From: Verrucomicrobiia bacterium
Lineage (GTDB): Bacteria > Desulfobacterota > Binatia > UBA9968
NCBI GenBank assembly: GCA_035495775.1
Contig: DATJFG010000033.1
Location: 64,122-128,121, forward strand
Reading direction: 5' to 3'
Length of the DNA stretch: 64,000 nucleotides
Below the pieces are notes generated by a model, which saw nothing but the letters and a program-made list of their open reading frames with translations, had not been told where the DNA came from and searched no databases. The number at the start of each line of letters is the position of its first letter. Within the stretch, counting starts at the first letter, position 1. Shown piece by piece: positions 17,019-41,066 of this stretch. The position numbers were made by a program, and so were the translations under genes.

Positions 17019-17393
17019 TCAAAGGGATACTTTCAGCTTGGTGATTTCGGCGTCGAGCTGGCGGATCCGCTGCGACAAGTGCTGCAGGATGCGGAACGCG
17101 AGCGAGGGATCTTCGTGAACGCGACGAAGAAAACTTTTACGGTCGACGGTGAGCACCTGCGCGTCGCCCACCGCCCGCACGGTGGCGGAGCGGACCTCGT
17201 GATCGAACAGCGCCATCTCGCCGAAGAAATCGGTCTCGTGGAGCACGGCGAGCCGGATCGGCTTGTGTGCACCGTTCTCCCGCACGACCTCGACCTCGCC
17301 CGATTGAATGACGAACATGCAATCGCCGCTCTCTCCCTCGCGGACGATCACCTCGCCGTTGTGAAAAGTTTTGCCTAATGCGCTCGTTTCCAT
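17019..17393 (-). CDS. cyclic nucleotide-binding domain protein
   Basis: cNMP-binding fold motifs (FGEMAL, RSATVRA). Confidence 0.6.
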   Translation of the reverse strand: METSALGKTFHNGEVIVREGESGDCMFVIQSGEVEVVRENGAHKPIRLAVLHETDFFGEMALFDHEVRSATVRAVGDAQVLTVDRKSFLRRVHEDPSLAFRILQHLSQRIRQLDAEITKLKVSL

Positions 17394-18760: not shown

Positions 18761-19062
18761 AACCTCTCCAGATCTCAGCATTCGACGGCTTCGACCATGC
18801 GCGAAGCCGCATGGAGCTAAAGCCGCCGCTGTGTTGTCCTTGAGTTTTTGTTAGCCCCTCCCAATGGAGGGGTGATGGGGCAGGCGGAGCCGGCAAGGTG
18901 AGGGTGGCGCGAGGGCCGTCCAGCTGATCGCCCGGTCTACGGAGGATTTCAGCCCAGGATTATCATCAAGCGTAATTGTGCGTCAAGTGTTCGGAACAGA
19001 GCGATGTACGCGGGGAGTCTTTTATTTGACGATTGCGGCGACGGCGAAGCAGCTCCACCTTC

Positions 19063-19911: not shown

Positions 19912-21456
19912 TTAGCCGCCTCGTTGCAGAGCGTTCAAGAACTCAGCCGCGCTGGGGTACCTCAAAATCATCGCTGCAGTTTGCAGGCCCGATGCGACGA
20001 CTCCGTAAATACCTCCACCCGGCTGCGTCCAATGGCCCGAAAGATAGAGCCCTCGAATGGCGGTTCGATGTGCCAGCCTTTTCCGGCCCACCTGTTCGGG
20101 CGAGACTTCCCATCCGTAAATCGCCCCGGTCAGGTTCAGCGTGTATCGCTCCATCGTTCGTGGCGAGGCGCCCTCGGCGAAAGTGACGTGGTCCCGGAGG
20201 CCAGGAATCACCGCTTCGATCTCGTTCAGGAGCAATTCCGCATAACGGACTTTTTCCCGCCGCCACGACGCGCCGATTTCATAGGGGATGAGCGTCGTCG
20301 CGACGACCAGGTGTTCGCCCGCTGGAGCCAACGAAGGATCGACCAGCGTTGGAATCGTCACGACGATTCCCGACGGCCTTCCCTCGAGGATCTTTTGGTA
20401 GATTTCATCGTGATCCCAGCTCTTATACAAGAAGATCTCGTGCCCGGCGTCCACCCGCCGCACGTCGAGATCCGTCGCCAGATACGCGACGAAGGCGGAG
20501 AGCGAAGGCTTCATCCGTTCGAGGCTGCTTAAGAATCGCCGCGAGAGGTGCTCCGCGCCGATGAGTTCCTCGAACGTCTGCCGAGCGTCGGCGTTCGAGA
20601 TCACGACCGGCGACTCGATGCGCTGACCGTTTTCCAAGAGGACTCCCGCCGCGCACCGGTCCTTGACGAGGATCTGGCGGACCCGGCTGTTGAGCAGGAG
20701 TTCGCCGCCGCTCCGCTCCAGCGCGGAGACGAAGGCGTTGACCAGATTTTGAAAGCTTCCGCGGCAGTAAAAGGCGCCCTCCGCGACAAAGCTCATCAGC
20801 ATCACGGACCAGTAAACAAACGAGAGCCTGGATGGCGGCAGGCCGAGATAAGGCCATGCGGCCCCAAGCACCGCTTTCACCCGAGGATCCGTGAGGTGCT
20901 CCTCCATCACCGCGCCGAGAGTCGCTTTATGATATCGGAACAGCGCTGGGAAACGCCGCGGCATGCGGACGACATCCCAAAACGAAAGGTCGGTCGGGAA
21001 TCGACGAACTTCTTCGTTGATCTGGCTGCAAAGCTCAATGAGCCGACGCAGCCCTCTCTCTTCGCTTGGAAAACAGCGAATATGCGCTTGAAGGTAGTGT
21101 TCGATCTCCAGCGGGGCGTGAAGTTTGAAGCCGGGAAAAACGGCGGTGTAAAAGGGATCGACGCGAACGAAGGCGCAGCGGTCTCGAACGGAAAGCAAAC
21201 GGAGGAGGCCGTCGATCAGCCCTCCCACCTCGAAGCCCACGGGCTCACACCCACCGATCAGATGAACCGCTGCATCGAAATTATACTTTTTCCGCCGGAA
21301 AGCATGGGCATAGCCGCCGGGGCGGTCGTGACGCTCGACCACAAGGACCTTCTTTCCCGCGCGGCCCAACAGCGCGGCGGCCGACAGACCGCCCATCCCG
21401 CTCCCGACAACGACCGCATCATAGGTTTCCGCGCGAGATTCCTTGCGCACGTTCAT
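19912..21456 (-). CDS. phytoene desaturase-family (CrtI-like) FAD/NAD(P)-binding oxidoreductase
   Basis: N-terminal GXGXXG (DAVVVGSGMGGL) and an overall CrtI/amine-oxidase-like fold. Confidence 0.7.
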   Translation of the reverse strand: MNVRKESRAETYDAVVVGSGMGGLSAAALLGRAGKKVLVVERHDRPGGYAHAFRRKKYNFDAAVHLIGGCEPVGFEVGGLIDGLLRLLSVRDRCAFVRVDPFYTAVFPGFKLHAPLEIEHYLQAHIRCFPSEERGLRRLIELCSQINEEVRRFPTDLSFWDVVRMPRRFPALFRYHKATLGAVMEEHLTDPRVKAVLGAAWPYLGLPPSRLSFVYWSVMLMSFVAEGAFYCRGSFQNLVNAFVSALERSGGELLLNSRVRQILVKDRCAAGVLLENGQRIESPVVISNADARQTFEELIGAEHLSRRFLSSLERMKPSLSAFVAYLATDLDVRRVDAGHEIFLYKSWDHDEIYQKILEGRPSGIVVTIPTLVDPSLAPAGEHLVVATTLIPYEIGASWRREKVRYAELLLNEIEAVIPGLRDHVTFAEGASPRTMERYTLNLTGAIYGWEVSPEQVGRKRLAHRTAIRGLYLSGHWTQPGGGIYGVVASGLQTAAMILRYPSAAEFLNALQRGG

Positions 21457-21721
21457 GCTTCGAATCTCTGAGCGGCTCTCGCCCGGCACTCGCTGCTTTT
21501 TCGCTGATTTTTAGGAATATCTACTTTTTCACCGCTTTCTTCAGATAAAAATATTCGCATCGCTTTCCGCCGTCTGAGCCCTTCTGCGAAGCGTCGTCGT
21601 CCCGGATCGTGAGCTTCCGTCCGATGAAATATAGTTGGCATTTTTCACCCTCGCGCATTGGCTCGAAGATCTTATCCGACTTCTGCGTCGAGCCATAGAA
21701 GTGAGAGGGGCGGCGCGTTTA

Positions 21722-22903
21722 CTAGGTGAGCTCGACCGTCAGTGGATTGTAAGAGTAGAGCCACGCGTTCCGCGCCGCGCCTTCTTCGCGGCCGGCGAAC
21801 GCCCGCCGGAGCTTCTCCTGATCGCGCATATGAAACAGCGTGCGGTTCGCGCTCGACCCCGCGACGATGCGCGAGGTCCGCTCGATCCGATTGCGTTCGT
21901 ACAGACGAAGGGCGTCGGCGACGGAGTCGGTCGACTGTAGAGCGCGGGTCAGCACGGCGGCGTCCTCGATCGCCATCGCCGCGCCCTGCGCGAGATAGGG
22001 CAGTGTCGCGTGAACCGCATCCCCGAGCAAAGTCGCGCGGCGGGTGCTCCATTGCTGGATCGGCGGCCGGTAGAACAGCGACCAGCGGTAGCACGCGTCT
22101 TTGTCGGCCTTGTCGATGACGGCCTGGATGTCTTCGTGCCAGCCCGCGAAATCCGCCTTCAGCCGCTCCCAGGGAAATTTGGCGGTCCACGATTCCTCGG
22201 ACACCTCGTCGGTCTCGACAAGCCCGACGAAATTCAGCAAGGCGCCGCCTCGGAGATAGTAACAAACGACGTGCCGTCCTGGACCCATCCAGACCGACAT
22301 GACCCGGCCCATGAAGTCCTCGGGCATCCGGCTCGAGGGCAGCGTCAAACGCCACGCGGCGTCGCCGGTATAACTAGCCTGGTCCGCGCCCGCGATCTGA
22401 GCGCGCACGGCGGATTTGACACCGTCCGCGCCGATCAGGAGGTCGCCCGCGGCCTTGGAGCCGTCGGCGAAGAATACCTCAACGCCGCCCGCGCTTTCAT
22501 CGAAGCCAACGATGCGGCGGTTCAACCGTACGATTTCGCTGTCGAAGTCTCGCGCCTTCGCGGCGAGCAGATCGTGGAGGTCGCCCCGGTGAAGCTGGTT
22601 GTACGGTGCCCCGTTGAGCCTCTCGTGCTCCTCGGCGAGGGGAAACTGGCCGATGATCTCGCCCGTATCGTGCAAACGAAAAACATAAGCGGCGGGTCGG
22701 ACCGATAGTTTGCCTGCGGCTTCTCCGAGGCCGAGATGATTGAGAACATGCATCGCGTTGGCGCTGAGCTGTATGCCCGCGCCGATCTCGCTGAGCTTCG
22801 GCGCCTGCTCGTAGACCTCGACGTCGTACCCCGCCTTCATGAGGCACGAGGCCGCCGTGAGGCCGCCGATGCCGGCGCCGGCGATTAGAACCTTCTTGGC
22901 CAT
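21722..22903 (-). CDS. FAD-dependent aromatic-ring monooxygenase (salicylate / 3-hydroxybenzoate hydroxylase family)
   Basis: KVLIAGAGIGGL, DG..S motif and GDAAH fingerprint (LLGDAVHA). Confidence 0.8.
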   Translation of the reverse strand: MAKKVLIAGAGIGGLTAASCLMKAGYDVEVYEQAPKLSEIGAGIQLSANAMHVLNHLGLGEAAGKLSVRPAAYVFRLHDTGEIIGQFPLAEEHERLNGAPYNQLHRGDLHDLLAAKARDFDSEIVRLNRRIVGFDESAGGVEVFFADGSKAAGDLLIGADGVKSAVRAQIAGADQASYTGDAAWRLTLPSSRMPEDFMGRVMSVWMGPGRHVVCYYLRGGALLNFVGLVETDEVSEESWTAKFPWERLKADFAGWHEDIQAVIDKADKDACYRWSLFYRPPIQQWSTRRATLLGDAVHATLPYLAQGAAMAIEDAAVLTRALQSTDSVADALRLYERNRIERTSRIVAGSSANRTLFHMRDQEKLRRAFAGREEGAARNAWLYSYNPLTVELT

Positions 22904-22966
22904 GAAAACGAACGGGCCGCCGCCCCGCTAGCGACCCAGCGCGAAGGGAGTCGCGCTTGCGGCGGC

Positions 22967-24652
22967 TTACCGGCCGCCTTTCTTCGGATAAAAATATTCG
23001 TATGTCCCCTCTTCCACCTTCTTGAACACCGTCGAGACCGTCTTCCACGGGTCCTTGGCGAAATCTTCGTAGCGTCCCGGCGCGCTGACGCCGGGGATGT
23101 GCGGCACCCAGTCCTCGGACAATAAATCTTTCGGGTCGCCGTAGCGCGACGCGAGCGCGCGCGCCTCGGGGCTGTCGAGCGAGGTCATCCGCCCCTTGTC
23201 GATGATATTGACCCAGGTGTTCTTCGTGCCGCGCACGCGCAGGCGATACGTCGAGAAGTAGTTGTGCACGTGCCACCAGTGGTCGTTCGGCAGGTTGTTC
23301 TTGGTGGTGAAGTCGACCCATTCCTTCGCCCATTCAGCCGAGTCGGGGCTGTGGTGCACGCGGATGCCGTGGCCGTAGTGGAGCACGCCGCTGCGGTTCC
23401 GCTCGGTCACATTGTCGCCGCGCATGTTCTCGTCCGGCCGCTTGTAATATTTGGGGTTGGTCCCGAGCGCGACCTCGTAGAGCTGCCAGTATCCCGGCCG
23501 GTCGTGATAAGGATAGGTCACCTCGTTGATCTTGGGATATTTCAAAAACTCGCGCCACAGATCGCCGTAGACGCCGCCTCCTTTCACGTCGTCGATGTAG
23601 CCGTCTTTTAGATGGACCTCGACGCGAGGGTAATGGCCCGCGTGATTCGCGGTGCCGGCGATGACGCCGCTCACGCGCGGCGTCGGCGACCGCGGGTTCC
23701 ATTTTTTCTGAAACGCCGGATACTCGACGACCGAGTAGGGAAAGCGCCCGGTTGCCTGATTGGGGAACATGTAGAGGTGTCCCTGCTGGTAGACGCCGCG
23801 CGCCCAGCGCGACGCCATGTCTTCGGTCAAATCGGCCGAGAGATTCGTCCCCTCAGGGTCGGCGACCTCCAGACGGTCGGCCCAGGCGATCGGCTCGATC
23901 GCGCGCTCTTCGGTCAAGCGCCAGACGTCGCCGGGAAACGCCGAGATCTTGCTCATCATGGTCCAGCGGTTGTCGAAGACATTGACGCCGAGAAATTTAT
24001 CCTCGTGCGGCCGCATGTAGCGCCTGAGCGTCGTGGTGCCGCCGGTGCCCCAGAAGACGCCCTTCACCGAGGGATTTTTCTCCACATATTCCTTGATGCC
24101 TTTGGCGACGTTCTCCCGCTCCAGTTTCTTGAGCGTCGCGCGCGCCTTCTCCGAAATTTCCGCCCGCGGCGGATACAGCTGCTCGTAGAGATCGGGACGG
24201 CGCTCCTTGAGCCATTTCTTCGGCACCTCGGGATCGGGGAACATCTCCTCCATCCAGCGCCGCGCCTCCATGTAGCCCTGCTCGGCGGTCGTCTGGCGGC
24301 GCGCCTTGATCGCTTCGAGCGCGTCGGCGCGGGAGACGCCGGCGAGCTCGTAGCTCGGCAGCACGTGGAGCTTGACGCCGCGCTCCTCCATCGCGCGGCG
24401 GATCGCCTCGACGACCATATCCTCTGACGACGCCTCGGTCACGAGCGCGACCGACTCGCCGGACTTGAGGCTCCCCAGCCCTTCGCCCTGGAGACCCGTC
24501 GTCTGGCGCGCCACGGCGCGCGCGAACGGCATGATCTCGTCGATCGACTTCGGCGCTGTGAGATACGACGGAAAGCGCGGCTGGCTGTATTTGCCCTCCG
24601 CGGCTAGAGCGAGCGAAGCGAATAATGCGGCCAAGAGGATCAGGCGTTTCAT
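22967..24652 (-). CDS. secreted protein of unknown function, paralog 1 of a three-member family
   Basis: Signal peptide (MKRLILLAALFASLALA). Shares N-terminal PRFPSYL.PKSI.EIMPFARA and C-terminal DPWKTVS...YEYFYPKKGG with 28370..30070 and 30081..31781. Confidence 0.75.
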   Translation of the reverse strand: MKRLILLAALFASLALAAEGKYSQPRFPSYLTAPKSIDEIMPFARAVARQTTGLQGEGLGSLKSGESVALVTEASSEDMVVEAIRRAMEERGVKLHVLPSYELAGVSRADALEAIKARRQTTAEQGYMEARRWMEEMFPDPEVPKKWLKERRPDLYEQLYPPRAEISEKARATLKKLERENVAKGIKEYVEKNPSVKGVFWGTGGTTTLRRYMRPHEDKFLGVNVFDNRWTMMSKISAFPGDVWRLTEERAIEPIAWADRLEVADPEGTNLSADLTEDMASRWARGVYQQGHLYMFPNQATGRFPYSVVEYPAFQKKWNPRSPTPRVSGVIAGTANHAGHYPRVEVHLKDGYIDDVKGGGVYGDLWREFLKYPKINEVTYPYHDRPGYWQLYEVALGTNPKYYKRPDENMRGDNVTERNRSGVLHYGHGIRVHHSPDSAEWAKEWVDFTTKNNLPNDHWWHVHNYFSTYRLRVRGTKNTWVNIIDKGRMTSLDSPEARALASRYGDPKDLLSEDWVPHIPGVSAPGRYEDFAKDPWKTVSTVFKKVEEGTYEYFYPKKGGR

Positions 24653-24665
24653 CCGAGTCCCCCCT

Positions 24666-25367
24666 TCAAACGACGAATCTGCCGTCGCGCATATGATAGA
24701 CCTTTTTGAACTGCTCGACCGCCTTGGGGTCGTGGCTCGCCATGACGACGGTCTTGCCGTGGCGCTCGGCGAGCGAGAGAAAAAGCGCGGCGATCGAAGC
24801 CGTGTTCTCGCTGTCGAGGTTGCCGGTCGGCTCATCCGCTAAAATCAGCGCCGGGTCGTTGGCGAGCGCCAGTGCCACCGCGACGCGCTGCTGCTCGCCG
24901 CCGCTCAATTCTTCCGGCCGCTTGTGCATCTTTTCCGCCAGACCCACCATGCCGAGCAGCCCCTCGCAGCGGCGCGCGCGCTCGCCCGGCGTCGTGCCCG
25001 CGATCAGCATCGGCAGCTCGAGATTCTCGGCGGCGGTGAGCGTCGGGATCAGATTGAAGAATTGAAAGACGAAGCCGATCTTCAGCAGCCGATAGCGCTC
25101 GAGCTCGCGCTCGCCGAGCATGCCGATGGTGTCACCGCCGACGACGATCTCGCCCGCCGATGCGTGATCGACGCCGCCGAGAATATTCAGCAGCGTCGTC
25201 TTGCCGCAGCCCGACGGACCCATGAGGGCGATCGCCTCGCCCGCCGCGATCCGCCAGTCGATGCCCTTCAGCGCGCGGACCTCCTCCGCCGAGGTGCGGT
25301 AGCTCTTCGCAAGCCCCGCCACCTTGACGTCGACGCCGCGGTTGGTGAAAAAGCCGTTGCCTTCCAT
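24666..25367 (-). CDS. ABC transporter ATP-binding protein, MacB/LolD family
   Basis: Walker A GPSGCGKTT, LSGGEQQR signature, Walker B ILADEPTGNLD, H-loop. Confidence 0.9.
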   Translation of the reverse strand: MEGNGFFTNRGVDVKVAGLAKSYRTSAEEVRALKGIDWRIAAGEAIALMGPSGCGKTTLLNILGGVDHASAGEIVVGGDTIGMLGERELERYRLLKIGFVFQFFNLIPTLTAAENLELPMLIAGTTPGERARRCEGLLGMVGLAEKMHKRPEELSGGEQQRVAVALALANDPALILADEPTGNLDSENTASIAALFLSLAERHGKTVVMASHDPKAVEQFKKVYHMRDGRFVV

Positions 25368-25382
25368 GAGACCTCCGAAAGT

Positions 25383-28328
25383 CTATTCCAGCATCCGCTC
25401 GCGCGCCGAGCGGCGGAAAACCCACAGGCTGAAGAGCAGCGCGATGCCGCCGATCACGACGAAGATCCCCGCGCCGATCCCAATCGTCGCGCCGGAAATC
25501 ACGAGATGGGTCGGCAGCAGGTGCACGACCGATTTGATCTCTCGGAGATTCCAGATGAGATTCGTGAGCCCGAATCCGGCGACCGCTGCGATGGCGACGC
25601 CGATCAAGAGTCCGGCGAGCGCGGGCGCGAGCAGCATCGAGGCGAAAAACTTGAACAGGAGCTTGGGCGACGCGCCGCGCACGCGCAGAAGGCCGAGCGT
25701 GCGCCGGTCTTCGAGATAGTTCGTAAGCGCGATCGCGGCGATCGCGATCAGCGCGAGCAGCATGCCGCCCGCCAGATAGATGCGCATGTTTTCGAGCGCG
25801 AGGAAGATGAACATGTCGCCGCCGATCTTCTTGAGCTCGCGGCCGAGTTCGCGCACCTCCAGCGGGCGCGCGCGGAGCGCGGTCGTGATCGCCTTCACCG
25901 CGGCGTCCGACCCCTCTTCGCGCTTTAAACGCACGAGCAGCAGGACGCGCGGCACGAGCACTTTGAGATTAGCGATCTTCGCGTTGTCGGCGGTCGCGAC
26001 CAGATAGGCGTCGGTACTGGAGAGGTAATTCAAATAGTCAATGCGCGCCGAGACGAAGCTCTGCCGGTCGGCGATGCTGCGCGGCGGCATGCCGGGCAGA
26101 AAGCCGATTACGCCGCCGCCGGGAACGAGCACCGGCTTTTTGTCCATATCCGCGCCGAGCAGGACCGGATCGCCGGAGGCGAGGTTCCAGAACTCCGCCA
26201 CCGGCGGCGAGGCGGCGACCTTTTCTGTCTTCAAGTCGCGCACGATGGCGCTGAAGTTGCCGCCGACGCCCAGCTTCTCGTCGAAGAAGACGGTTTTGAG
26301 ATAGCGCTCTGGGTCGTCGATGAGATAGAGCGGCACGCCGCTTAGGCCGTAGCCGGGGAAAAAAAATCCCGGCAGGAGCGCCTCGATGATCGTATCGATC
26401 GAGACGATGTTGTCGTCGCGGACCGCGCCGAGACGCTCCTTGACCGCGGTCCTGATCGCCTGCGCCTGCGCGCCGAGTCCCTGATCGAGTTTTTCCGCCG
26501 GGACGAGATCGCCCGGGCCGAGGGCGATGTGAAGCTCGCTCCCGACCTCGACGGTGGCGCCGCGGAGCGCTTTGTCCTCGAAGGATTTCGCGCCGATGCT
26601 CGGATAGAGGCTGACGCTTGCCATGAGCGCGACGATGAGCAAAAAGCTCGCGATGCGGTGCGGCTTGAACGACATGTGGCGTAACGACAGGCGCCTGAGC
26701 GGCCCGCCGAGAATACGCGAAACCAAGTCGAGCAAAGCCGTCATCAAGCCCTGCCGCGAGACCAACAACGAGACCAGGCCGTAGACGATGAGCGGCAGCG
26801 CGACGAAATCGAGCGCGCGGTCGAGCACCAGGATCGTCCTGACGAAGATCGTCCACGACGCGGAGGCATCCTCGGCGAGCGCCATGTGGCGCGCCGGATC
26901 GAAGTCGACGGCCCAGCTCATTAGCTTGTAGAGCCCGACGAGCAGAGCGGCCATCTGGAGCGGGCCGAAGCGCATGCCGGCTTCGCTGGATTCCGAGGCG
27001 GCGACGCGGCGCGAGGCCTCGAGCGGCGAGATCGTCGTCGCGTAGCGCACCAGGCGCCGGCTCGACCACAGGGCGAAGAGAACTCCCACGACGAGAAAGA
27101 AAAGCATCTGCAGCGGCCCCTGGACGTGCGAGAGAACCGTCCAGGAGAGCGCGCCGCGCTCGTAGAGAACGAGCGGCAGCAGCGTGCCGAGGATAAGTCC
27201 GATGACGCCGCCGATCAGGCCGCCGGCGCCGATCGAGAGCATGAGGCTCTGCCCCAGCAGCGCGCCGGGCACGCCGCGAAGCCGCATGAGGCCGAGTTTG
27301 CGCCGCTCGTTCAGGATGAGCAGCGCGGAGAGATTGGACGCCAGCATCCAGGCGATCGCGAGCAGCGGGATCGCGATCAACAGCGTCGCGAAATAGAGCA
27401 GGCGCGAGATCTCCGCCATGCGGTTCAAGAGCACGAGGATCGCGTTGTCGACGAAGATCGTCGGCCCGAGCGAGCTCACCTGCGCCTCGATGTCTTTCTG
27501 GAGCTTTTGAAGATTGGCGAGCGAGCCGCGGATATCCCAGCCGGAGATCAATTTTTTCCGGTCGACGCGCGCGAGATGAATCACCTCCGGCAGATATTCG
27601 CCCGCGGTCGTGTGGATATCCCCCTGCCCGCCGAGCGCGCCGCGCGAGAGCGCGTCGAACCAGCGGAGCCGCTCGAAGTCGTGCGGCATCACGAGAACGA
27701 TGCCGATGTAGGGGACGAACGAGATCGTGCCGATCTCGTCCATGAAGTAGCGGTTGACCTCGGCGCGCTCCAGACGGACGACACCGTGGACCGGCAGGGC
27801 GAACAAGTCCTGCTCGCTTCGCTTGCCGCCGTGGCTGTGCACGGTTACGGAAAAATTCTTCGCCTGCTGGAGCGCGAGAAAGGCGTGGCCCATCTGCTGC
27901 TCCGGGCCGACGAGCGCGAGATGCGCGCCGCGGTCGCCCGCGCTCGGCCGCACCTCGGACGGCAGCAGCGAGAGATCGGTCGCCGCGAGGATCGACACCC
28001 AAGGCGAGGCGAGCGGCTTGCCGTCGACCGCGAGCGCCGCCTCGGGCGGCGGCTTGGAGCGGAGGAACGTCAGCGTCTCGACGCGCTGGATGCCCGCGAC
28101 GGCGGCGAGCCTCGGCGTGATCTCTTTCGAGAGCGGGAACTCGGTCGTCTGGTAGAGCGCCACGTCCCAGGAGAGGCGCGAGAGCTGATCTTCGATGTAG
28201 AGTTTGAGCGCGTGGCGCGACGCGACGTTGATCGCGGCGAGCAGCCCGGCGATCAGGAGCGTCACGATGCCGAAGGCGAGCGCCGCGCGGCGCCCGAGGA
28301 TCTTTGCGAGACGAAGCTTGATGCTCAT
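25383..28328 (-). CDS. dual FtsX-domain ABC permease (MacB/YbbP-like, type VII mechanotransmission family)
   Basis: 981 aa with two repeats of (TM, large periplasmic domain, three-TM FtsX domain with RLRGV / LRVRGAS motifs). Confidence 0.8.
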   Translation of the reverse strand: MSIKLRLAKILGRRAALAFGIVTLLIAGLLAAINVASRHALKLYIEDQLSRLSWDVALYQTTEFPLSKEITPRLAAVAGIQRVETLTFLRSKPPPEAALAVDGKPLASPWVSILAATDLSLLPSEVRPSAGDRGAHLALVGPEQQMGHAFLALQQAKNFSVTVHSHGGKRSEQDLFALPVHGVVRLERAEVNRYFMDEIGTISFVPYIGIVLVMPHDFERLRWFDALSRGALGGQGDIHTTAGEYLPEVIHLARVDRKKLISGWDIRGSLANLQKLQKDIEAQVSSLGPTIFVDNAILVLLNRMAEISRLLYFATLLIAIPLLAIAWMLASNLSALLILNERRKLGLMRLRGVPGALLGQSLMLSIGAGGLIGGVIGLILGTLLPLVLYERGALSWTVLSHVQGPLQMLFFLVVGVLFALWSSRRLVRYATTISPLEASRRVAASESSEAGMRFGPLQMAALLVGLYKLMSWAVDFDPARHMALAEDASASWTIFVRTILVLDRALDFVALPLIVYGLVSLLVSRQGLMTALLDLVSRILGGPLRRLSLRHMSFKPHRIASFLLIVALMASVSLYPSIGAKSFEDKALRGATVEVGSELHIALGPGDLVPAEKLDQGLGAQAQAIRTAVKERLGAVRDDNIVSIDTIIEALLPGFFFPGYGLSGVPLYLIDDPERYLKTVFFDEKLGVGGNFSAIVRDLKTEKVAASPPVAEFWNLASGDPVLLGADMDKKPVLVPGGGVIGFLPGMPPRSIADRQSFVSARIDYLNYLSSTDAYLVATADNAKIANLKVLVPRVLLLVRLKREEGSDAAVKAITTALRARPLEVRELGRELKKIGGDMFIFLALENMRIYLAGGMLLALIAIAAIALTNYLEDRRTLGLLRVRGASPKLLFKFFASMLLAPALAGLLIGVAIAAVAGFGLTNLIWNLREIKSVVHLLPTHLVISGATIGIGAGIFVVIGGIALLFSLWVFRRSARERMLE

Positions 28329-28369: not shown

Positions 28370-30070
28370 CTAACGCTTATCGCCGCCGCCTTTTTTCGGA
28401 TAAAAATATTCGTAGCTGCCGTCTTCGATTTTTTTCATCACCATGGAGACGGTCTTCCACGGGTCCTTGGCGTAGTCCTCGTAGCGGCCCGGCGCGTTGA
28501 TGCCCGGGAGATACGGCGCCCAATCGTCACTGAGGACTTCGTTCGGATCGCCGTATCTGGATGCCAGCGCGCGGATCTCCGGCGATTTGAGCGAGGTGAG
28601 CTCACCTTTGTCGATGAGCGTTACCCAGGTACTTTTCGTCCCGCGGATTTTGACCTGATAGGTAGGCAGCGTGTTGTGAATGTGCCACCAGTGGTCGTTC
28701 GGTAGGTTGTTCTGCTTCGCGAAATCCATCCACTCCTTGGATTCCACCGGGCCCTGCGGACCGTGGTCTAATCTCAGGCCGAAGCCCCAGTGGATCGTCC
28801 CCGCGTTGTTGCGCTCGGAGCTGTTCTCCCCTTCCATGTTTTCGTCGGGGCGCTTGAAGAATTTCGGATTGGTGCCCGTGCCCGCCTCGTAGATCCACCA
28901 GTAGCCGGGCTGATCGTAATAAGGATATTTCAGCTCGTTGATCTTGGGATATTTGAGAAACTCGCGCCACGCTTCGCCGTAAAGCCCGCCGCCTTTCACC
29001 TCGCTCACGTAGCCGTCCTTGACGTGAACCTCGATGCGCGGATAGTTGCCGGCGTGATTGCCGGTGCCGGCGAAAACGCCGTTCACTTTCACGAGGGAAG
29101 GATACAGGTATTCCTTCGTGAACGCCGGATAATCGACCGCGGAATAGGGAAAGCGGCCCATCGCCTGATGCGGGAACATGAAGAGATGTCCCTGCTGGTA
29201 GGCGCCCTTCGCCCACGCGAGCGCCTGCTTCTCGTCGATTTCGAAATTGAAGTTCGTCCCTTCGGGATCGCTCACGCGCACCTGGTCGATCCAGCGGAGC
29301 GGCTCGATGACCCGCTCTTCCACCAGCCGCCACACGTCGCCCGGGAAGGTCGAGGCCTTGTTCATCAGCTCGTAGCGGTTATCGAAGATGAAGTTGCCGT
29401 ACAATTTATTGTGGTACGGCTCGATCTGCCTGCGCGTGTTGGTGCGGCCGCCGCGGCGCCAGAAAACCATGTCGACTTCTTTGTGCTGATCGAGATACTT
29501 GACGATCGCCTGCGCGACGTTCCGGCCGCCGAACTTCCGCGCCAGATCGACCTGCTCTTGCGACATCGCCTCTTCTTTCTCGAACATCGCCTTGTAGAGA
29601 TCGGGCCGCTTCTCCTTGAGCCATTTCTTCGGCACCGAAGGATCGGAGAACGCGTTCAAGATCCAGCGGTGCGCCTCCATATAGCCCTGCTCGGAGGTGA
29701 ACCAGCGGAGCGCCTTCACCGCCTTCAGCGCCTCGTCTTTGCTGACGCCGAGAAGCTGGTATTCGGGCACGATCTGGATTTTCACGCCGCGCTCTTCGTA
29801 CGCGCGCTTGATCGCCTGCAAGACCATCTCGTCGGCCTTGGGCTCGGTGAAAATCGCGACGGTCTGACCTTTTTCCGCCAGACCGAGCGGCGTCCGTCCG
29901 CCGGTCTGCCTGACCGCGGCGCGCGCGAATGGCATGATGTCCTCGATCGATTTCGGCGGCTTTAAATACGACGGGAAGCGCGGCGCCGGATACTTCGCCT
30001 GCTCCGCGCTCCAGACATATCCGAACGCCGCGCATGCGACGAAGATCGCAGAGATGATCCAGCGCTTCAT
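28370..30070 (-). CDS. secreted protein of unknown function, paralog 2
   Basis: Signal peptide (MKRWIISAIFVACAAFG). Roughly 65-70% identical to paralog 3 over the N-terminal 150 aa. Confidence 0.75.
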   Translation of the reverse strand: MKRWIISAIFVACAAFGYVWSAEQAKYPAPRFPSYLKPPKSIEDIMPFARAAVRQTGGRTPLGLAEKGQTVAIFTEPKADEMVLQAIKRAYEERGVKIQIVPEYQLLGVSKDEALKAVKALRWFTSEQGYMEAHRWILNAFSDPSVPKKWLKEKRPDLYKAMFEKEEAMSQEQVDLARKFGGRNVAQAIVKYLDQHKEVDMVFWRRGGRTNTRRQIEPYHNKLYGNFIFDNRYELMNKASTFPGDVWRLVEERVIEPLRWIDQVRVSDPEGTNFNFEIDEKQALAWAKGAYQQGHLFMFPHQAMGRFPYSAVDYPAFTKEYLYPSLVKVNGVFAGTGNHAGNYPRIEVHVKDGYVSEVKGGGLYGEAWREFLKYPKINELKYPYYDQPGYWWIYEAGTGTNPKFFKRPDENMEGENSSERNNAGTIHWGFGLRLDHGPQGPVESKEWMDFAKQNNLPNDHWWHIHNTLPTYQVKIRGTKSTWVTLIDKGELTSLKSPEIRALASRYGDPNEVLSDDWAPYLPGINAPGRYEDYAKDPWKTVSMVMKKIEDGSYEYFYPKKGGGDKR

Positions 30071-30080
30071 GTGAACCTCT

Positions 30081-31781
30081 TTACTGCCGCACCTTTTTGA
30101 TCGGCGGGTAGAAATATTCGTAGCTGCCGTCCTCGATCTTCTTAATGACCGTCGAGACGGTCTTCCACGGGTCCTTGGCGTAATCCTCGTAGCGTCCCGG
30201 CGCGTTGATTCCCGGCAGATACGGCGACCAGTCCTCCGCCAGCACTTCGTTGGGATCGCCGTAGCGCGAGGCGAGCGCGCGGATCTCGGGACTCTTGTAC
30301 GCCGGCATCTCGCCCTTATCGATGATCGTGAGCCAGGTGTTCTTCGTGCCACGGACGTGCATGCGATAGGTGAGCAGCGTGTTGTGGACATGCCACCAGT
30401 GGTCCTTCGGCAGCCCATGCTCTTTGGGGAAATCGATCCAAGCCTTCGACTCCTCCGGCTTGTCGGGATCGTGGATCACACTGCCGCCGAAGCCCCAATG
30501 GATCACGCCGGCGTTGTTGCGCTCGGACTGGTTGTTTCCCTCCATGTTTTCGTCCGGCCGTTTGAAGAATTTCGGGTTCGTGCCGAGCCCGGCTTCGTAG
30601 AACCACCAGTAGCCGGGGCGGTCCTGATAGGGATATTTAAGGTCGTTGATGCCGGGATATTTCATGAACTCGCGCCACAGCTCGCCGTAGGTGCCGCCGC
30701 CTTTCACGTCGGTGACGTAACCGTCCTTTACGGTGACTTCGATGCGCGGATAGCTGCCGGCGTGATTGCTGGTGCCGGCGAAGACGCCGTTGACGCGGCT
30801 GATGATCGGCGCGTTCCACTTTTTCTGGATCGCCGGGTAATCGACGACGGAAAACGGAAAGCGGCCGGTCGCCTGATAAGGCGAGAGAAAGAGATGGCCC
30901 TGGTTATAGGCGCCGGAGGCCCAGATCTTCGCCTCCTCTTCGGTCACCTCGAAGTTCATGTGTGTGCCCTCGGGGTCGAAGGCCTCGACGCGATCGGTCC
31001 AGGGAATCGCCTCCAGCACGCGCTCCTCCGCGAGGCGCCAGACGTCGCCGGGAAAGCCCGAGGCCTTGTTCATCAGCTCGTAGCGGTTGTCGAAGATGAA
31101 GTTGCCGTAGAACTTCGCGCTGTGCTGCTTCAACAGCCGCGCCGTGCGCGGCCGGCCGCCGCGGCGCCAGAAGACCGACTTCACGTCCGGATGCTCGTCG
31201 AGGAATTTGATGATGCCGGCGGCGACGTTCGGTCCGCCGAACTGCTTCGCGATCTCGCGCTGCTTCTGCGGCGCCTGCTCGGTCGTGGCGTAGATTGCGT
31301 TGTAGAGATCGGGCCGGCGCTCCTTGAGCCATTTCTTCGGCACTTCGGGATCGATAAAAAGGTCGTTGATCCAGTGCGCGGCTTCCATGTAGCCCTTCTC
31401 GGACGTGTAGCCGCGAGTCGCCTTGATCGCCTTCAGAGCCTCGTCGCGGCCGATGCCAAGCAGCTCGTGCTCGCCGATGATGTAAATCTTGACGCCGCGC
31501 TCCTCGAAGGCGCGCTTGATCGCTTGCATGATCATCGGGTCGGCGCCCGCCTCCGTGACGATCAGCGTCGCCGTGCCTTTTTCCACCAGGCCCAGCGGCG
31601 TGCGGCCGCCGGTCTGGCGCACGGCGGCGCGCGCGAACGGCATGACGTCCTCGATCGATTTCGGCGGCTTTAGATAGGAGGGAAAGCGCGGCGGCGGGTA
31701 GTTGCCTTTCTCGGCGGCGTCGGCGAGAAAGATCGCCGTCGCGAAAACGGCGGCGCTGATCGCAATCAGATAATGTCGCAT
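30081..31781 (-). CDS. secreted protein of unknown function, paralog 3
   Basis: Signal peptide (MRHYLIAISAAVFATAIFLADA). Same family motifs as paralogs 1 and 2. Stop is 10 bp before the paralog 2 start. Confidence 0.75.
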   Translation of the reverse strand: MRHYLIAISAAVFATAIFLADAAEKGNYPPPRFPSYLKPPKSIEDVMPFARAAVRQTGGRTPLGLVEKGTATLIVTEAGADPMIMQAIKRAFEERGVKIYIIGEHELLGIGRDEALKAIKATRGYTSEKGYMEAAHWINDLFIDPEVPKKWLKERRPDLYNAIYATTEQAPQKQREIAKQFGGPNVAAGIIKFLDEHPDVKSVFWRRGGRPRTARLLKQHSAKFYGNFIFDNRYELMNKASGFPGDVWRLAEERVLEAIPWTDRVEAFDPEGTHMNFEVTEEEAKIWASGAYNQGHLFLSPYQATGRFPFSVVDYPAIQKKWNAPIISRVNGVFAGTSNHAGSYPRIEVTVKDGYVTDVKGGGTYGELWREFMKYPGINDLKYPYQDRPGYWWFYEAGLGTNPKFFKRPDENMEGNNQSERNNAGVIHWGFGGSVIHDPDKPEESKAWIDFPKEHGLPKDHWWHVHNTLLTYRMHVRGTKNTWLTIIDKGEMPAYKSPEIRALASRYGDPNEVLAEDWSPYLPGINAPGRYEDYAKDPWKTVSTVIKKIEDGSYEYFYPPIKKVRQ

Positions 31782-31840: not shown

Positions 31841-32830
31841 TCAGCGCGGGTAGAGCTGCTTGATGAAACCTTCCTTGGCGAGTTGCTCGATGGGTCCCGT
31901 GTCGTAAAACGCGCGCTGATCGGCGGTCTTCGCGCGCGGATTGCGCGCCGCGATATCCTCGAAGGCGTTCTCGATCTCACTCGCGCTGACCGTCGGCACG
32001 TCGCGGATGTAGCCCAGGACATAGGTGCGAAAGGCGCTTTCGAGCAGCTTCTTATCGTCGGTGCGCGTATATTTCGCGAGAATTTTCACCGTAAACTCGG
32101 GATTGGCCTTGGCGTATTTGATCCCTTCGAGCGTCGCCTTGAGAAAGCGGTTGAGCGTCGCCGCGCGGTTCTTGATGAAGGCGTCGGTCGCCACCAGCGC
32201 CGTGCCGGGGTAGCGGTAGTTGATGTTGGCGAGATTCACCATCTCCTTATAGCCCAGCTCCTTCGCCTTCTCTAGCGTGGGCGAGGAGATGAGACCGCCT
32301 TTGATCACCCCCTGCTGCATGAACATGAGGTTCTCCGGCACGCCGCCGGTCTGAATCATCTTGATATCCTTGTTCGGGTCGAGGCCCCATTCGCTCACCG
32401 CCTTGCGGAGCCCTAGGTCGGTCAGCGAGCCGAAGCGGCTGACGCCGAAGGTCTTGCCTTTGAGGTCCTCCGGCTTGGTGATATCAGGCGTCGTCACGAG
32501 GCTCATCGGAATAACGTTGATCACGCTGCCGATGATCTTGACCTCCGAGCCGGCCAACCGAGCCAGGATTGCGGCAGCTCCGGAACCCTGGGCGATTTGA
32601 GTATCCCCGGAAACCAGGGTGGTGATCGCCTGGGAGCCGGCGATGTAGATCAGGTTCACGTCCAGGCCGTACTTTTTATAGATCCCCGCATCTTTGGGTA
32701 CCCAGCTCGAGACCGACGCGCCGGCGATCGTGGAGTAAACGATGTTCAGCCTCTCGAGCTCGGCGGCGGCCGCAGGCGAAGGGGAAAGCAGGGCGACCGC
32801 TAGTAAAAAAACCGTTGAAAAGTTAAGCAT
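31841..32830 (-). CDS. periplasmic substrate-binding protein, NMT1/SsuA/TauA family (first gene of the six-gene cluster)
   Basis: Signal peptide and NMT1-like two-lobe sequence. No TauC/SsuC-type permease follows. Confidence 0.7.
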   Translation of the reverse strand: MLNFSTVFLLAVALLSPSPAAAAELERLNIVYSTIAGASVSSWVPKDAGIYKKYGLDVNLIYIAGSQAITTLVSGDTQIAQGSGAAAILARLAGSEVKIIGSVINVIPMSLVTTPDITKPEDLKGKTFGVSRFGSLTDLGLRKAVSEWGLDPNKDIKMIQTGGVPENLMFMQQGVIKGGLISSPTLEKAKELGYKEMVNLANINYRYPGTALVATDAFIKNRAATLNRFLKATLEGIKYAKANPEFTVKILAKYTRTDDKKLLESAFRTYVLGYIRDVPTVSASEIENAFEDIAARNPRAKTADQRAFYDTGPIEQLAKEGFIKQLYPR

Positions 32831-32839
32831 CTGCAGGCA

Positions 32840-32869
32840 ATCTACGGCTTGCTGTTACGACTTGTCAAG
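32840..32869 (-). promoter_or_regulatory. candidate sigma-70 promoter of the six-gene cluster
   Basis: Minus-strand TTGACA-18 nt-TAGATT ends about 8 nt before the ATG, which would imply a leaderless or very short-leader transcript. Weak. Confidence 0.25.
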
Positions 32870-32921
32870 CGGCTGGTTGATTGTTTCGGCGGACTCTTGT
32901 ACCCTGGCGAGGTTGTCAGCC

Positions 32922-34334
32922 ATGCGGGTATCAGTAGCCATAGCGCTTGTCGCGCTCCCGCCCTGGTTCGCCACTGCCTGCGGCACGGCGCCTTATGTAC
33001 AGACCGGTTCTCAGCCGGGCGCGGCCGCGGAAAACCGGGTGGTCAGCACGCCTCCTGCGGCGGCGCCGGCGGAAACCTTGACCCCGCCTACCGATCCGAC
33101 CCCTTCCGCGCGCGTCCCGAGCGACATCATCACAACTCCGCCGGCCGCTGAAGTGAAACCCGTCGCAGCGGAAGCCGTCAAACCCGAGGAGCCGTCCGCC
33201 ACAGTCCTGCAGGAGATCGCCGGACCCAAGGCGGACGACAGGCTTGTCGGCCTGCTCCAAAAAGAGATCGAAGAAGCGATGCAGCTGCCGTCCGGACGGC
33301 GCAAGATTCAGTTCTCCATGACGCTCGTCGAGAACGAGCGGGTGCGTTACTTTATCGATGCGTTCTGCGGCAAGCTGCGGGATTTTTTCGTCCAGGCGCT
33401 GGCGCGCTCGGGTAAATACATCCCGATGATGGCCTCCATCCTACAGCAGGCCGGCCTGCCGCAGGACCTCGTCTACCTGTCGCTGATCGAGAGCGGCTTC
33501 GCGCCTTCGGCCTATTCCAAGGCGAAGGCGGTCGGTCCATGGCAGTTCATCCGCTCGACCGGCGTGCGCTACGGCCTCAGGATCGACAACTGGGTCGACG
33601 AGCGGCGCGACCCGGTGAAATCGACGCGTGCGGCTGCCGCCTATTTAAAGGATCTGCATCAGCAGTTCGGCGAATGGTTCCTTGCCGCCGCCGCCTACAA
33701 CGCCGGGGAGCACCGGGTCGAATACGCTATGCAACGGACCAACACCAGCGACTTCTGGGATTTGAGCGAGCGGCGGACGATCCTAAAACAGGAGACGCGT
33801 AATTACGTCCCGAAGTTCGTCGCCGCGGCACTGATCGCCGGCGCTCCGGAGAAATACGGCTTCGCCGATCTCGTCTACGAAGCCCCGATGGATTACGACG
33901 AGGTGGTCACTCACCGCCCGCTGACGCTTACGATGATCGCGCGCCTGGCGCAGACAACGGCCGCCAATGTCAAGGAGCTGAATCCGGCGCTGCTTAAAAG
34001 CGTCACGCCGGCAAGCGAGCAGGGTTTCACCGTGCGTGTTCCGTCCGGCAGCGGCGAGATTTTTAACCAAGCTTATAAAAGCCAGTACGATTCGCCGAAC
34101 ATCAAAGTCATCAGCTATACGGTGAAAAAGGGCGAGAGCCTGGCGATGATCGCCCGGCGCTATCACGTCCGCGCAAGTCAGATTATCGAGACCAACGAGC
34201 TCAAGACGGCGCAAGTCCGGGCCGGGCAGCAGTTGACGATTGTCCAGGACGGATCGGCGCCCGTCGAGGCGGCGAAAGAGCCCAAAGCGGCGCCGCGGCC
34301 CCAGGCAACTCAGAAAAAAACCAAATCCAGATAA
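32922..34334 (+). CDS. membrane-bound lytic murein transglycosylase D-like (SLT domain + LysM)
   Basis: Signal/lipoprotein-like N-terminus, Pro/Ala-rich linker, SLT catalytic region (LSLIESGF, AAYNAGE) and a C-terminal LysM. Confidence 0.75.
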   Translation: MRVSVAIALVALPPWFATACGTAPYVQTGSQPGAAAENRVVSTPPAAAPAETLTPPTDPTPSARVPSDIITTPPAAEVKPVAAEAVKPEEPSATVLQEIAGPKADDRLVGLLQKEIEEAMQLPSGRRKIQFSMTLVENERVRYFIDAFCGKLRDFFVQALARSGKYIPMMASILQQAGLPQDLVYLSLIESGFAPSAYSKAKAVGPWQFIRSTGVRYGLRIDNWVDERRDPVKSTRAAAAYLKDLHQQFGEWFLAAAAYNAGEHRVEYAMQRTNTSDFWDLSERRTILKQETRNYVPKFVAAALIAGAPEKYGFADLVYEAPMDYDEVVTHRPLTLTMIARLAQTTAANVKELNPALLKSVTPASEQGFTVRVPSGSGEIFNQAYKSQYDSPNIKVISYTVKKGESLAMIARRYHVRASQIIETNELKTAQVRAGQQLTIVQDGSAPVEAAKEPKAAPRPQATQKKTKSR

Positions 34335-34350: not shown

Positions 34351-35643
34351 TTATTGACGCTGTGAAAGCGGCACGTAGCCGCGCTTCTCGGCGCCTTTAT
34401 AAATCTGCCGCGGGCGGGCGATCCTGTTCTTCTGCTCGGGGTCGAGCAGCATCTCCTGCCAATGCGCGATCCAGCCGATCGTGCGCGCGATCGCGAACAG
34501 CACCGAGAACATATCGATCGGCAGACCCATCGACTGGTAGATGAGACCCGAGTAAAAGTCGACGTTCGGATAGAGCTTCCGCTTGATGAAGTACTCGTCT
34601 TCGAGCGCGATCTTTTCCAGCTCGAGCGCGATATCGAGCAGCGGGTTGCGCCCCTTCACATCGAAGACCTCGTAGGCGACCCGCTTGATGATCTTGGCCC
34701 GCGGGTCGTAATTCTTGTAAACGCGGTGGCCGAAGCCCATCAACCGGCCTTCGCCGGATTTCACTCGTTTGATAAACGCCGGGACGTTGTCCTTGTGCCC
34801 GACCTCGCTCAGCATGCGGAGCACCATCTCGTTGGCGCCGCCGTGGAGCGGTCCGTAAAGCGCCGCAGCGGCCGCCGCCACCGAGCAGTATGGATCCGAA
34901 TGGGCGCTGCCCACGCCGCGCATCACGTTCGTGCTAATATTCTGCTCGTGATCGGCATGCAGAATAAATAAAATGTCGAGCGCCCGCTCCAGCACCGGAT
35001 GCGGCTGGTACTTGAGCTCCGTCATCTTGAACAGCATGTTCAAGAAATTGCCGGCATAGCTTAAATCGTTGTCGGGATAGGCGTACGGCATACCGATGCT
35101 GTGGCGGTAGGCGAAGCCGGCGATGGTGGGCATTTTTGCAACCAGTCGATAGGTCTGCTTTTGCCGCGACTCGGCGTTGTAGATGTCTTTCGCTTCGCTG
35201 TAAAAGGTCGACAGCGCCGCGACCGTGCTCACCAGCATGCTCATCGGATGCGCGTCGTGGTGAAAGCCGTCGATGAACTTTTTGATATTCTCGTGCAGGA
35301 TCGAATGATGCGTGATGTTATAGTTCCACTCGTCGAGCTGGGATTTGTTCGGCAGCTCGCCGTTTAAAACGAGATAGGCGGTTTCGAGATAAGTGCTTTT
35401 CTCCGCCAGCTCTTCAATCGGATAGCCGCGGTAGCGCAGGATCCCGGCGTCGCCGTCGATATAGGTGATCCGGCTGGTGCACGCAGCCGTGTTCATGAAG
35501 CCGGGGTCGAAGCTGCCGAGGCCGAAATCGTCCTCGCCGGTCTTGATCTGGCGCAGATCGGTCGCGTTGATCATCCCGTCATGGATGGGAATGTCATACT
35601 TTTTGCCCGTTCGGTTATCGATGACCGTGATCGTATCCGGCAT
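34351..35643 (-). CDS. gltA: citrate synthase
   Basis: 430 aa with the citrate synthase signature GFGHRVYK and catalytic His/Asp context. Confidence 0.95.
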   Translation of the reverse strand: MPDTITVIDNRTGKKYDIPIHDGMINATDLRQIKTGEDDFGLGSFDPGFMNTAACTSRITYIDGDAGILRYRGYPIEELAEKSTYLETAYLVLNGELPNKSQLDEWNYNITHHSILHENIKKFIDGFHHDAHPMSMLVSTVAALSTFYSEAKDIYNAESRQKQTYRLVAKMPTIAGFAYRHSIGMPYAYPDNDLSYAGNFLNMLFKMTELKYQPHPVLERALDILFILHADHEQNISTNVMRGVGSAHSDPYCSVAAAAAALYGPLHGGANEMVLRMLSEVGHKDNVPAFIKRVKSGEGRLMGFGHRVYKNYDPRAKIIKRVAYEVFDVKGRNPLLDIALELEKIALEDEYFIKRKLYPNVDFYSGLIYQSMGLPIDMFSVLFAIARTIGWIAHWQEMLLDPEQKNRIARPRQIYKGAEKRGYVPLSQRQ

Positions 35644-40956: not shown

Positions 40957-41066
40957 GCGCACAAGACTGGAAGTCAAGATAGAGGCCGGGTGGAGGCCTG
41001 TCAATGCAAATTGGCCGTTTGCGCGCGCGCCGGGAAGTGCTAGCATCGGGCCGAACAGGAGGACCT

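Follow-up and report, generated by a model that had tools for sequence, protein, structure and literature searches.

What are the three similar secreted proteins encoded around an ATP-binding cassette (ABC) transporter in a genome of the Binatia, and do they act together with that transporter? The question is raised by a 64,000-nucleotide stretch, here called the window, of contig DATJFG010000033.1 (positions 64,122 to 128,121, forward strand) in GenBank assembly GCA_035495775.1, which is deposited as Verrucomicrobiia bacterium and placed by GTDB in Desulfobacterota; Binatia; UBA9968. A preliminary description, made from the letters of the window, had noticed a three-member secreted family with possible and very distant likeness to the M29 (AmpS/aminopeptidase T) aminopeptidases. 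Here, we report that the three proteins, designated P1, P2 and P3, form a previously undescribed family within the M29-aminopeptidase/NicX-dioxygenase superfamily. We further propose, with about an even chance of being right, that they are exported periplasmic metalloenzymes that partner a YbbP-like type VII ABC transporter.

P1-P3 form a new family with the M29/NicX fold

Two complete genes and no others, both on the minus strand, occupy positions 28370-31781 of the window. P2 (566 amino acids (aa); 28370-30070) lies directly upstream of an FtsX permease gene and is the copy that we modelled; P3 (566 aa; 30081-31781) was delimited from its open reading frame and start choice, its signal-like N-terminus and its orthogroup placement. 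P1 (561 aa; 22967-24652, minus strand) lies outside this span, past the ABC genes, where it follows the ABC ATPase gene and represents a 'post-ABC' lineage. P2 and P3 share 68.5% identity, within the 65-70% previously estimated by eye, and P1 shares 58% with either of them, somewhat more than the roughly 50% given for it before. An N-terminal block, KYPxPRFPSYLKPPKSIE..MPFARAAVRQT, and a C-terminal block, GRYEDYAKDPWKTVS...YEYFYP, both quoted in the preliminary description, are identical or nearly so in all three proteins.

The N-termini of P1-P3 comprise a K/R-containing n-region, a 19-residue hydrophobic core and an AxA-like site, followed by the conserved mature start KYPxPRFPSY. In P2, the predicted Sec signal peptide covers residues 1-22 (MKRWIISAIFVACAAFGYVWS, with cleavage before A; 30005-30070, minus strand; hydropathy peak at residues 4-22), and equivalent signal-like segments begin P1 and P3, in keeping with the secreted nature ascribed earlier to all three paralogs. 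These signal peptides were called from hydropathy together with the conserved mature start rather than by a dedicated predictor. A similar signal-type N-terminus was present in 111 of 119 close homologues, the remainder being mostly truncated, and the mature proteins would measure about 545 aa. A lipoprotein reading, suggested by FVAC in the P2 signal peptide, was rejected because the Cys is not conserved in P1, P3 or the orthologues. Twin-arginine (Tat) export was rejected as well: the 'RR' cases were mostly KRR n-regions without the consensus, and a Pfam TAT_signal match was found in only one distant family member.

Structure prediction placed P2 in a known fold. With 42 close sequences as input, AlphaFold gave a mediocre first model (predicted local distance difference test score (pLDDT) of 70); with 120 sequences, including the distant branch, it gave a confident second one (pLDDT 94.1; predicted template modelling score 0.91). 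In a fold search with the P2 model, the highest score was obtained for NicX (7CN3; 16.6, with 297 of 348 residues aligned), followed by AmpT (2AYI; 12.2), CgnE (6ZSU; 10.7), CgnB (6ZSV; 9.8) and AmpS (1ZJC; 9.4); the next structure, which is unrelated, scored 7.7. An independent Foldseek search picked out AmpT, PepS and NicX alone, at E values of 2e-10 to 9e-9 and a probability of 1.0. The model thus has both the two-lobed AmpS/AmpT fold, with remote homology, and the NicX fold, and NicX is its nearest solved structural relative. P1-P3 go beyond this fold in having a helical insertion and, at the C-terminus, a conserved extension of about 75 aa. The relatives recovered are themselves connected, as NicX and Hpo carry an AmpS-like domain (PMC3831237) and CgnB and CgnE have been described as derived from M29 aminopeptidases (PMC10070186).

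Profile-profile comparison with hhalign led to the same superfamily. The broad family alignment of 61 sequences (A2) matched 80 M29 sequences, 77 of which were taken from metagenome loci, at 97.6% (E 4e-12, 347 columns), three M29 sequences at 85% (E 5.9e-6) and 24 NicX sequences at 80% (E 1.4e-5), and profile A5 matched the 80 M29 sequences at 94.3% (E 1e-7). A comparison of A2 with a single NicX sequence was weak (24%). The alignments run colinear with the M29 or NicX chain from end to end and pair the key positions in the same way, and the N-terminal block that had been set by eye against the AmpS N-terminal lobe aligned there. The NicX query sequence was identical to 7CN3_A, the AmpS residues were read from the PDB alignment (three differ from the query), and the PepS and AmpT sequences were obtained through an AmpS query of the PDB.

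Direct family assignment gave no counterpart to this remote signal, in agreement with the earlier statement that no confident assignment could be made. P1-P3 found no match among the Pfam or NCBIfam models. Peptidase_M29 (Pfam PF02073) was not matched by any of 61 diverse members even at E 10, and hmmscan with the NicX family model PF26233 gave no match for P1-P3 or for the members flagged with precomputed hits. Some homologues carry only 'faint' or 'weak' precomputed PF26233 hits, whereas true NicX proteins all carry PF26233. Across P1-P3, the PF26233-flagged homologues, the distant members and all 61 members of A2, only chance-level matches (WYL, glycosyltransferase and the like) were obtained, and these were discarded. 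Searches of PDB sequences with a single sequence, with profiles A1 and A2, with the catalytic-domain profile A3 and with P0114 gave nothing usable: NicX appeared only at E 1.8, and the top matches (mS22, HIV RNase H at E of about 0.01, arsenate reductase and prolyl endopeptidase) were rejected as short generic alpha/beta stretches unsupported by the fold searches. A literature search found no paper on the family.

The family is nevertheless large. A word-indexed search of a database clustered at 90% returned 512 homologues at E<=1e-3, and an exhaustive HMMER search of 1.84 billion cluster representatives returned 670 clusters at 50% identity at the same threshold, 185 of them below 1e-30. Both the similarity among the three paralogs and these numbers of homologues are far beyond chance. 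The close branch (56-95% identity) consists almost entirely of metagenome-assembled genomes (MAGs) of Candidatus Binatia and 'Deltaproteobacteria'. Distant members, which share 25-40% identity and measure 460-550 aa, come from Chloroflexota, Acidobacteria, Actinobacteria and Nitrososphaerales, and about 70% of them have no hydrophobic N-terminus, indicating that the family has cytoplasmic as well as exported branches. Every homologue that bears a name is labelled 'hypothetical protein'.

The candidate metal site matches neither M29 nor NicX

We next consider which residues could make up an active site. In P2, the candidate residues lie in three minus-strand motifs that were located by translation, alignment and conservation: EAGTGTNP (28865-28888), which contains Glu395 and falls within the family motif ExxxGTNPK; ERNNAGTIH (28790-28816), which contains Glu419, Arg420 and His427; and HWWHIH (28676-28693), which contains His460, His463 and His465. 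In the alignments, Glu395 corresponds to the bridging Glu319 of AmpS and to His265 of NicX, Glu419 to AmpS Asp342 and NicX Ala292, and Arg420 to AmpS Glu343 and NicX Arg293. His427 corresponds to AmpS His348 and falls at most two columns from NicX Ser302, His463 corresponds to AmpS His381 and NicX His318, and His465 to AmpS Asp383 and NicX Asp320. A further motif, DPEGT (268-272), aligns with the invariant GTD(L) of M29.

Aligning the paralogs and their homologues identified D268, H295, H339, E395, E419, R420, H427, H460, H463 and H465 as candidate site residues, each 80-98% conserved in the 61-sequence alignment. In that alignment, position 395 is Glu in 48 of 61 sequences and Asp in a further 4, position 419 is Glu or Asp in 55, and His460, His463 and His465 are kept in 60, 57 and 54, respectively; Arg420 is kept in 52 of the 61 and in 111 of 120 sequences. 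Among 64 copies from 30-odd loci, representing every paralog lineage, D268, E270, H295, H339, E395, H427, H460, H463 and H465 were kept without exception, and E419 was kept in 62, with Gln only in the two Chloroflexota copies; P1 has all ten of these residues. H295, H339 and H460 are thus three further invariant His that we regard as candidate site residues. Such strong constraint in every copy points clearly to a functional site.

We then compared this site with that of the M29 peptidases. The M29 dinuclear ligands, which we take to be Glu253, Glu319, His348, His381 and Asp383 in AmpS numbering, are consistent with the invariant columns. P1-P3 match Glu319, His348 and His381, carry His465 in place of Asp383 and have no match for Glu253. 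The HWWHVHN segment, compared earlier with the M29 metal site, does lie there: His463 and His465 of P2 occupy the H-x-D positions (H381/D383). The pairing of RPDENM with the FDEN motif fails, since D409 and E410 vary freely and the true counterpart of D-E-N is E419-R420-N. The aligned residue for the catalytic Glu343 of the FDEN motif is accordingly Arg420, with Glu419 one position earlier, opposite Asp342. Glu343 is changed to Asp in the PepS substrate complex, and the two PepS sequences compared differ at this position. The M29 likeness first suspected by eye therefore stands for fold and superfamily, on the evidence of AlphaFold, Foldseek and hhalign, and falls for the active site, where no M29 signature is present.

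NicX holds a mononuclear Fe(II) by His265, Ser302, His318 and Asp320 (PMC7910607), and of these ligands only His318 is kept in the family, as His463. The active-site Arg293 of NicX is shared, as Arg420. His105, Glu177 and His189 of NicX fall opposite Tyr218, a gapped stretch and Ala285, respectively, in a low-confidence region of the hhalign alignment. The site of P1-P3 fits neither the M29 nor the NicX signature, and for this reason we class the proteins neither as M29 peptidases nor as NicX dioxygenases.

These comparisons bear directly on the possibility that P1-P3 are exported M29-type metallo-aminopeptidases, with a dinuclear Co/Zn centre, that trim peptide N-termini in the periplasm. Homology and fold agree with this idea. 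The dinuclear Zn site of CgnB and M29 comprises two Glu, a third acid, two His and one Asp (PMC10070186), and five of these six positions carry metal-binding residue types in the family (E395, E419, H427, H463 and H465). The spacing of 24 between E395 and E419 also resembles those in AmpS (23 for E319-D342 and 24 for E319-E343), exported relatives linked to TonB receptors would suit oligopeptide scavenging, and the partners known for type VII ABC transporters have until now been hydrolases or activators of hydrolases. Nonetheless, the position of the catalytic Glu343 is an invariant Arg, that of Asp383 is a His and Glu253 has no counterpart; the nearest structure is NicX; and the 61 members fail to match Pfam M29 at E 10. 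NicX and Hpo, with the same AmpS-like domain, showed no aminopeptidase activity on leucine p-nitroanilide (PMC3831237), nor did CgnB and CgnE show aminopeptidase activity (PMC10070186). We consider this explanation very unlikely.

The same site argues on a second alternative, in which P1-P3 would be non-catalytic periplasmic receptors or adaptors that bind a metal, a peptide or a small ligand and either present it to the transporter or tune the transporter, in the manner of CgnB/CgnE, which bind a precursor peptide but do not cleave it, or of EnvC with FtsEX. The duplicated CgnB/E copy regularly loses its metal site, whereas the candidate catalytic or metal set is reported as complete in 64 of 64 copies of the present family. 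Cytoplasmic relatives are, in addition, placed like enzymes in catabolic gene clusters. A purely binding role consequently appears improbable to us.

P1-P3 are encoded with a type VII ABC transporter

On the minus strand of the window, the genes follow the order NMT1/SsuA-type binding protein, P3, P2, FtsX permease, ABC ATPase and P1, with gaps of 10-59 bp. The first gene (31841-32830, minus strand) encodes a 329-aa periplasmic solute-binding protein of the NMT1/SsuA family with a signal peptide (Pfam NMT1, 8.9e-24; its NCBIfam SsuA_fam match is below the cut-off). The permease (981 aa; 25383-28328, minus strand) was recognized by Pfam FtsX and hydropathy and matched no NCBIfam model or PDB sequence. 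Its hydropathy peaks at 15-33, 310-420 (three), about 499-580 and 850-971 (three) predict approximately 10 transmembrane helices and two periplasmic domains of about 270 aa each, the same pattern as in E. coli YbbP. The ATPase (24666-25367, minus strand; Pfam ABC_tran) is of the LolD/MacB/FtsE/YbbA type that characterizes type VII ABC systems, with its best NCBIfam match to LolD (1e-63), followed by MacB, FtsE and YbbA.

To place this arrangement in a wider context, the proteins of the window were used to scan 35 loci from a species-level genome collection together with contigs carrying exact homologues. In 21 non-redundant loci, one of them from Chloroflexota, family genes, one to five in tandem, are found directly upstream of a permease of about 1000 aa with an FtsX domain and a LolD/MacB-type ATPase, often with one or two further family copies after the ATPase; where the permease is missing, the locus is mostly cut off by a contig edge. 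P0332, a distant member, likewise adjoins a 1042-aa FtsX protein. In the Chloroflexota locus L037 (381-10446), two family genes, an FtsX permease and an ATPase are followed by a second FtsX permease, and both family copies have Gln at 419. About a dozen loci have NMT1-like genes flanking those of the family, and an NMT1-type gene occupies the same position as in the window in L001, L004, L012 and L028. Binatia contigs generally carry many NMT1-like genes near family members.

In a neighbour-joining tree, the paralogs fell into at least four old lineages, and each lineage keeps its own place in the gene order: one always abutting the permease (P2), one first after the NMT1 gene (P3), a middle one that is absent from the window and one following the ATPase (P1). 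The P3 lineage holds the same position in L001, L004 and L012, where three family genes stand between the NMT1 gene and the permease (L001 8241-13406, L004 1030-6248 and L012 6406-11698), compared with two in the window. The middle lineage would therefore have been either lost from this genome or placed elsewhere in it.

This positional order weighs on a third alternative, namely that the proteins are enzymes independent of the FtsX-type ABC system. They would then break down, in the periplasm, a compound entering via the outer membrane, with the NMT1 protein capturing substrate or product and the ABC system merely co-regulated, for instance for efflux of a toxic product. Family members do occur beside NMT1-like genes without an FtsX gene (L032, L033, L040 and L041) and beside TonB receptors, cytoplasmic members pair with ordinary ABC importers, and contact between the family proteins and the permease is something that we infer. 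Yet the gap between family and permease genes is only 10-60 bp, the order is kept in 21 loci and into Chloroflexota, and one lineage always abuts the permease while another always follows the ATPase. An efflux pump would, moreover, need membrane-fusion or outer-membrane-factor genes; the annotated contexts contain none, leaving an efflux reading of the ABC system unsupported. Independence from the transporter thus seems unlikely.

Distant relatives lie in uptake and catabolic contexts

The neighbourhoods of distant relatives offer some guidance on function. In L125, L126, L127, L007 and L008, cytoplasmic relatives have as neighbours ABC importers of the ordinary kind, with binding proteins of the NMT1 or another type. 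They also occur among UbiD decarboxylases, IclR or FCD regulators, Amidohydro_2 and TauD, and other neighbours include a dihydropyrimidine-dehydrogenase-like pair with M20 and RidA, short-chain dehydrogenases and ornithine-cyclodeaminase-like genes. On two unrelated contigs, a CbbQ/NorQ-type AAA+ gene (AAA_5 plus CbbQ_C) lies downstream of a cytoplasmic member, immediately in L126 (7473-10503) and one gene on, after a solute-binding protein gene, in L127 (8764-9633). AAA+ proteins of this type often serve metal-centre assembly. In L126, the CbbQ/NorQ-type gene is followed by a gene for a 730-aa protein without a Pfam match.

Exported relatives were found in a different setting. In L129 (544-6819) and L130 (2731-9275), a TonB-dependent receptor of about 1050 aa (CarboxypepD_reg, Plug and barrel) is followed directly by two tandem exported family genes, and in L130, an Acidobacteria MAG, a molybdenum hydroxylase and a TetR regulator lie upstream. 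The common theme of these contexts is uptake and catabolism of a small compound, and their details are too varied to name it.

A working model for P1-P3

Our preferred explanation, set out at the beginning, runs as follows. After Sec export, each paralog would bind one or two metal ions at the His-rich site and, once in the periplasm, would serve the ABC transporter as a catalytic partner. ATP hydrolysis in the cytoplasm would move the two large periplasmic domains of the permease, and this movement might hand substrate to the enzymes or gate their activity, as in YbbAP-TesA or in FtsEX with cell-wall hydrolases. The proposal of a type VII partner follows from the precedent of YbbAP-TesA, which pairs a 10-transmembrane FtsX-type permease with a secreted hydrolase; there, a type VII ABC transporter is combined with a periplasmic hydrolase that has its active site turned towards the transporter (PMC12646458). 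A small organic compound is a likelier substrate than a protein N-terminus, given that the M29 general-base Glu is replaced by a NicX-type Arg and that relatives lie beside uptake systems and in catabolic contexts for aromatic or N-heterocyclic compounds. Hydrolysis, as in M29, and O2-dependent ring cleavage, as in NicX, are about equally likely.

Several observations weigh against this explanation. That the proteins bind metal, catalyse a reaction and touch the permease is what we infer. Opposite AmpS Glu253, the first Glu of the dinuclear site in M29, the family has a non-acidic loop, and Asp/Glu313 is a candidate for its replacement in the close branch only. The narrower profiles scored weakly (A5 against three M29 sequences, 1.5%; A1 against the deep M29 profile, 6%), so that the hhalign signal needs diverse profiles on both sides. 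No sequence similarity between the permease and E. coli YbbP was detectable by BLASTP (best E 0.22), and the YbbAP analogy is accordingly one of architecture and ATPase type only. An NMT1 binding protein is expected of an importer rather than of a type VII system. Finally, the contexts of distant members are heterogeneous, and the TonB receptor loci would equally fit an oligopeptide-degrading peptidase.

A broader extension of the model, which we put forward tentatively and hold to be doubtful, is that the cluster encodes a new type VII machine in which several metalloenzymes of the M29/NicX fold are carried on the periplasmic domains of the YbbP-like transporter. Through ATP hydrolysis, a compound associated with the membrane or the envelope would be extracted or presented, to undergo ring opening or hydrolysis in a metal-dependent reaction, and the NMT1-type protein would collect the product. 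If true, type VII ABC systems would gain a fifth functional class, and for the first time the partner would be a metalloenzyme family with an active site unlike those of both characterized relatives.

Other features of the locus

Possible ends of an operon were identified by consensus match only. A promoter-like site (TTGACA-18-TAGATT; 32839-32868, minus strand) just upstream of the NMT1 gene may mark the operon start, in a region where the number of promoter-like sites is not above chance. A terminator-like hairpin (22913-22938, minus strand), with a 9-bp stem, 6 G-C pairs and a T-rich tail, may mark the operon end and lies between the P1 stop codon and the gene for a cytoplasmic FAD monooxygenase (21722-22903, minus strand) directly downstream of P1. 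The best match of this monooxygenase is 3-hydroxybenzoate 6-monooxygenase (Pfam FAD_binding_3, the family to which NicC presumably also belongs), and it is followed by a CrtI/phytoene-desaturase-family oxidoreductase (19912-21489, minus strand). The FAD monooxygenase also follows the P1 orthologue in L012, but not in L004. Being conserved only in L012 and lying behind the hairpin, the two genes were set aside as a weak lead to pathway partners.

On the other side of the cluster, a divergent SLT-LysM lytic transglycosylase gene (32742-34334, plus strand) and a citrate synthase gene (34351-35643, minus strand) keep their synteny with the cluster across a dozen loci of Binatia, which may reflect the backbone of the lineage or hint at a cell-wall connection. 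In L001, a 503-aa fusion of an NMT1-type binding domain with a peptidoglycan-binding LysM domain is encoded a few genes downstream of the cluster (19988-21499), adjoined by an AAA_16/AAA_22 ATPase and an sCache-HAMP protein. The window also holds two more NMT1/THI5-type binding-protein genes away from an obvious cognate permease (7071-8099 and 41004-42071, both plus strand), and long overlapping open reading frames of 468 and 480 aa on both strands at 17375-18781, the minus-strand product of which has no Pfam match. A sigma-54-dependent two-component pair, comprising a histidine kinase (4273-6009, minus strand) and an NtrC-type response regulator (2905-4269, minus strand), has no evident link to the cluster.

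Significance and comparison with known systems

To our knowledge, the M29/NicX fold has only three characterized offshoots, the aminopeptidases, a pyridine-ring dioxygenase and the crocagin peptide binders, and the family of P1-P3 would be the fourth. The superfamily is already known; new are the distinct active-site signature, the extra structural elements, the exported branch and the kind of transporter association. The exported branch provides a testable candidate partner for an uncharacterized class of type VII ABC transporters. In this superfamily, function is set by the periplasmic partner, and the first enzyme partner of such a transporter that we know of, TesA, was described only in 2025. 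Candidatus Binatia are uncultured and common in soils, and a conserved multi-gene envelope module in them likely matters for what these organisms consume. A family model would, in addition, remove several hundred 'hypothetical protein' labels.

Compared with its nearest enzymes, the family is set apart by size, location and site. NicX, a 2,5-dihydroxypyridine 5,6-dioxygenase like Hpo (PF26233, 7CN3), is a cytoplasmic homohexamer of 350-aa subunits (PMC7910607), whereas P1-P3 are about 200 aa longer and exported. Their residues at the NicX ligand positions read Glu395, approximately His427, His463 and His465, they possess three extra invariant His, and no residues in them clearly correspond to His105, Glu177 and His189, which bind the substrate in NicX. 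With respect to the M29 enzymes (AmpS 1ZJC, AmpT 2AYI and PepS 4ICQ; PF02073), which are cytoplasmic, P1-P3 show the changes Glu343 to Arg420 and Asp383 to His465, leave Glu253 unmatched, are exported, and carry the helical insertion and the C-terminal extension. CgnB and CgnE of crocagin biosynthesis (6ZSV and 6ZSU) are cytoplasmic, non-catalytic peptide binders of about 300 aa, the second copy of which loses the metal site. Unlike them, the proteins of the present family are larger, keep the site in every copy and reside in an envelope-transporter setting rather than a cluster for a peptide that ribosomes make and that is modified after translation (RiPP).

The closest parallel for the arrangement as a whole is YbbAP-TesA. 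Both systems have a LolD/MacB/YbbA-type ATPase and a single permease of about 10 transmembrane helices with two large periplasmic domains, which are predicted in the present case. In both, the gene for the secreted enzyme adjoins the transporter genes, and mechanotransmission is proposed to serve a periplasmic enzyme. They differ in the fold of the partner, which is M29/NicX-like for the putative partner here and that of an SGNH esterase in TesA, in its number, with three to five paralogous candidates against one, and in the NMT1 binding-protein gene that is often part of the cluster.

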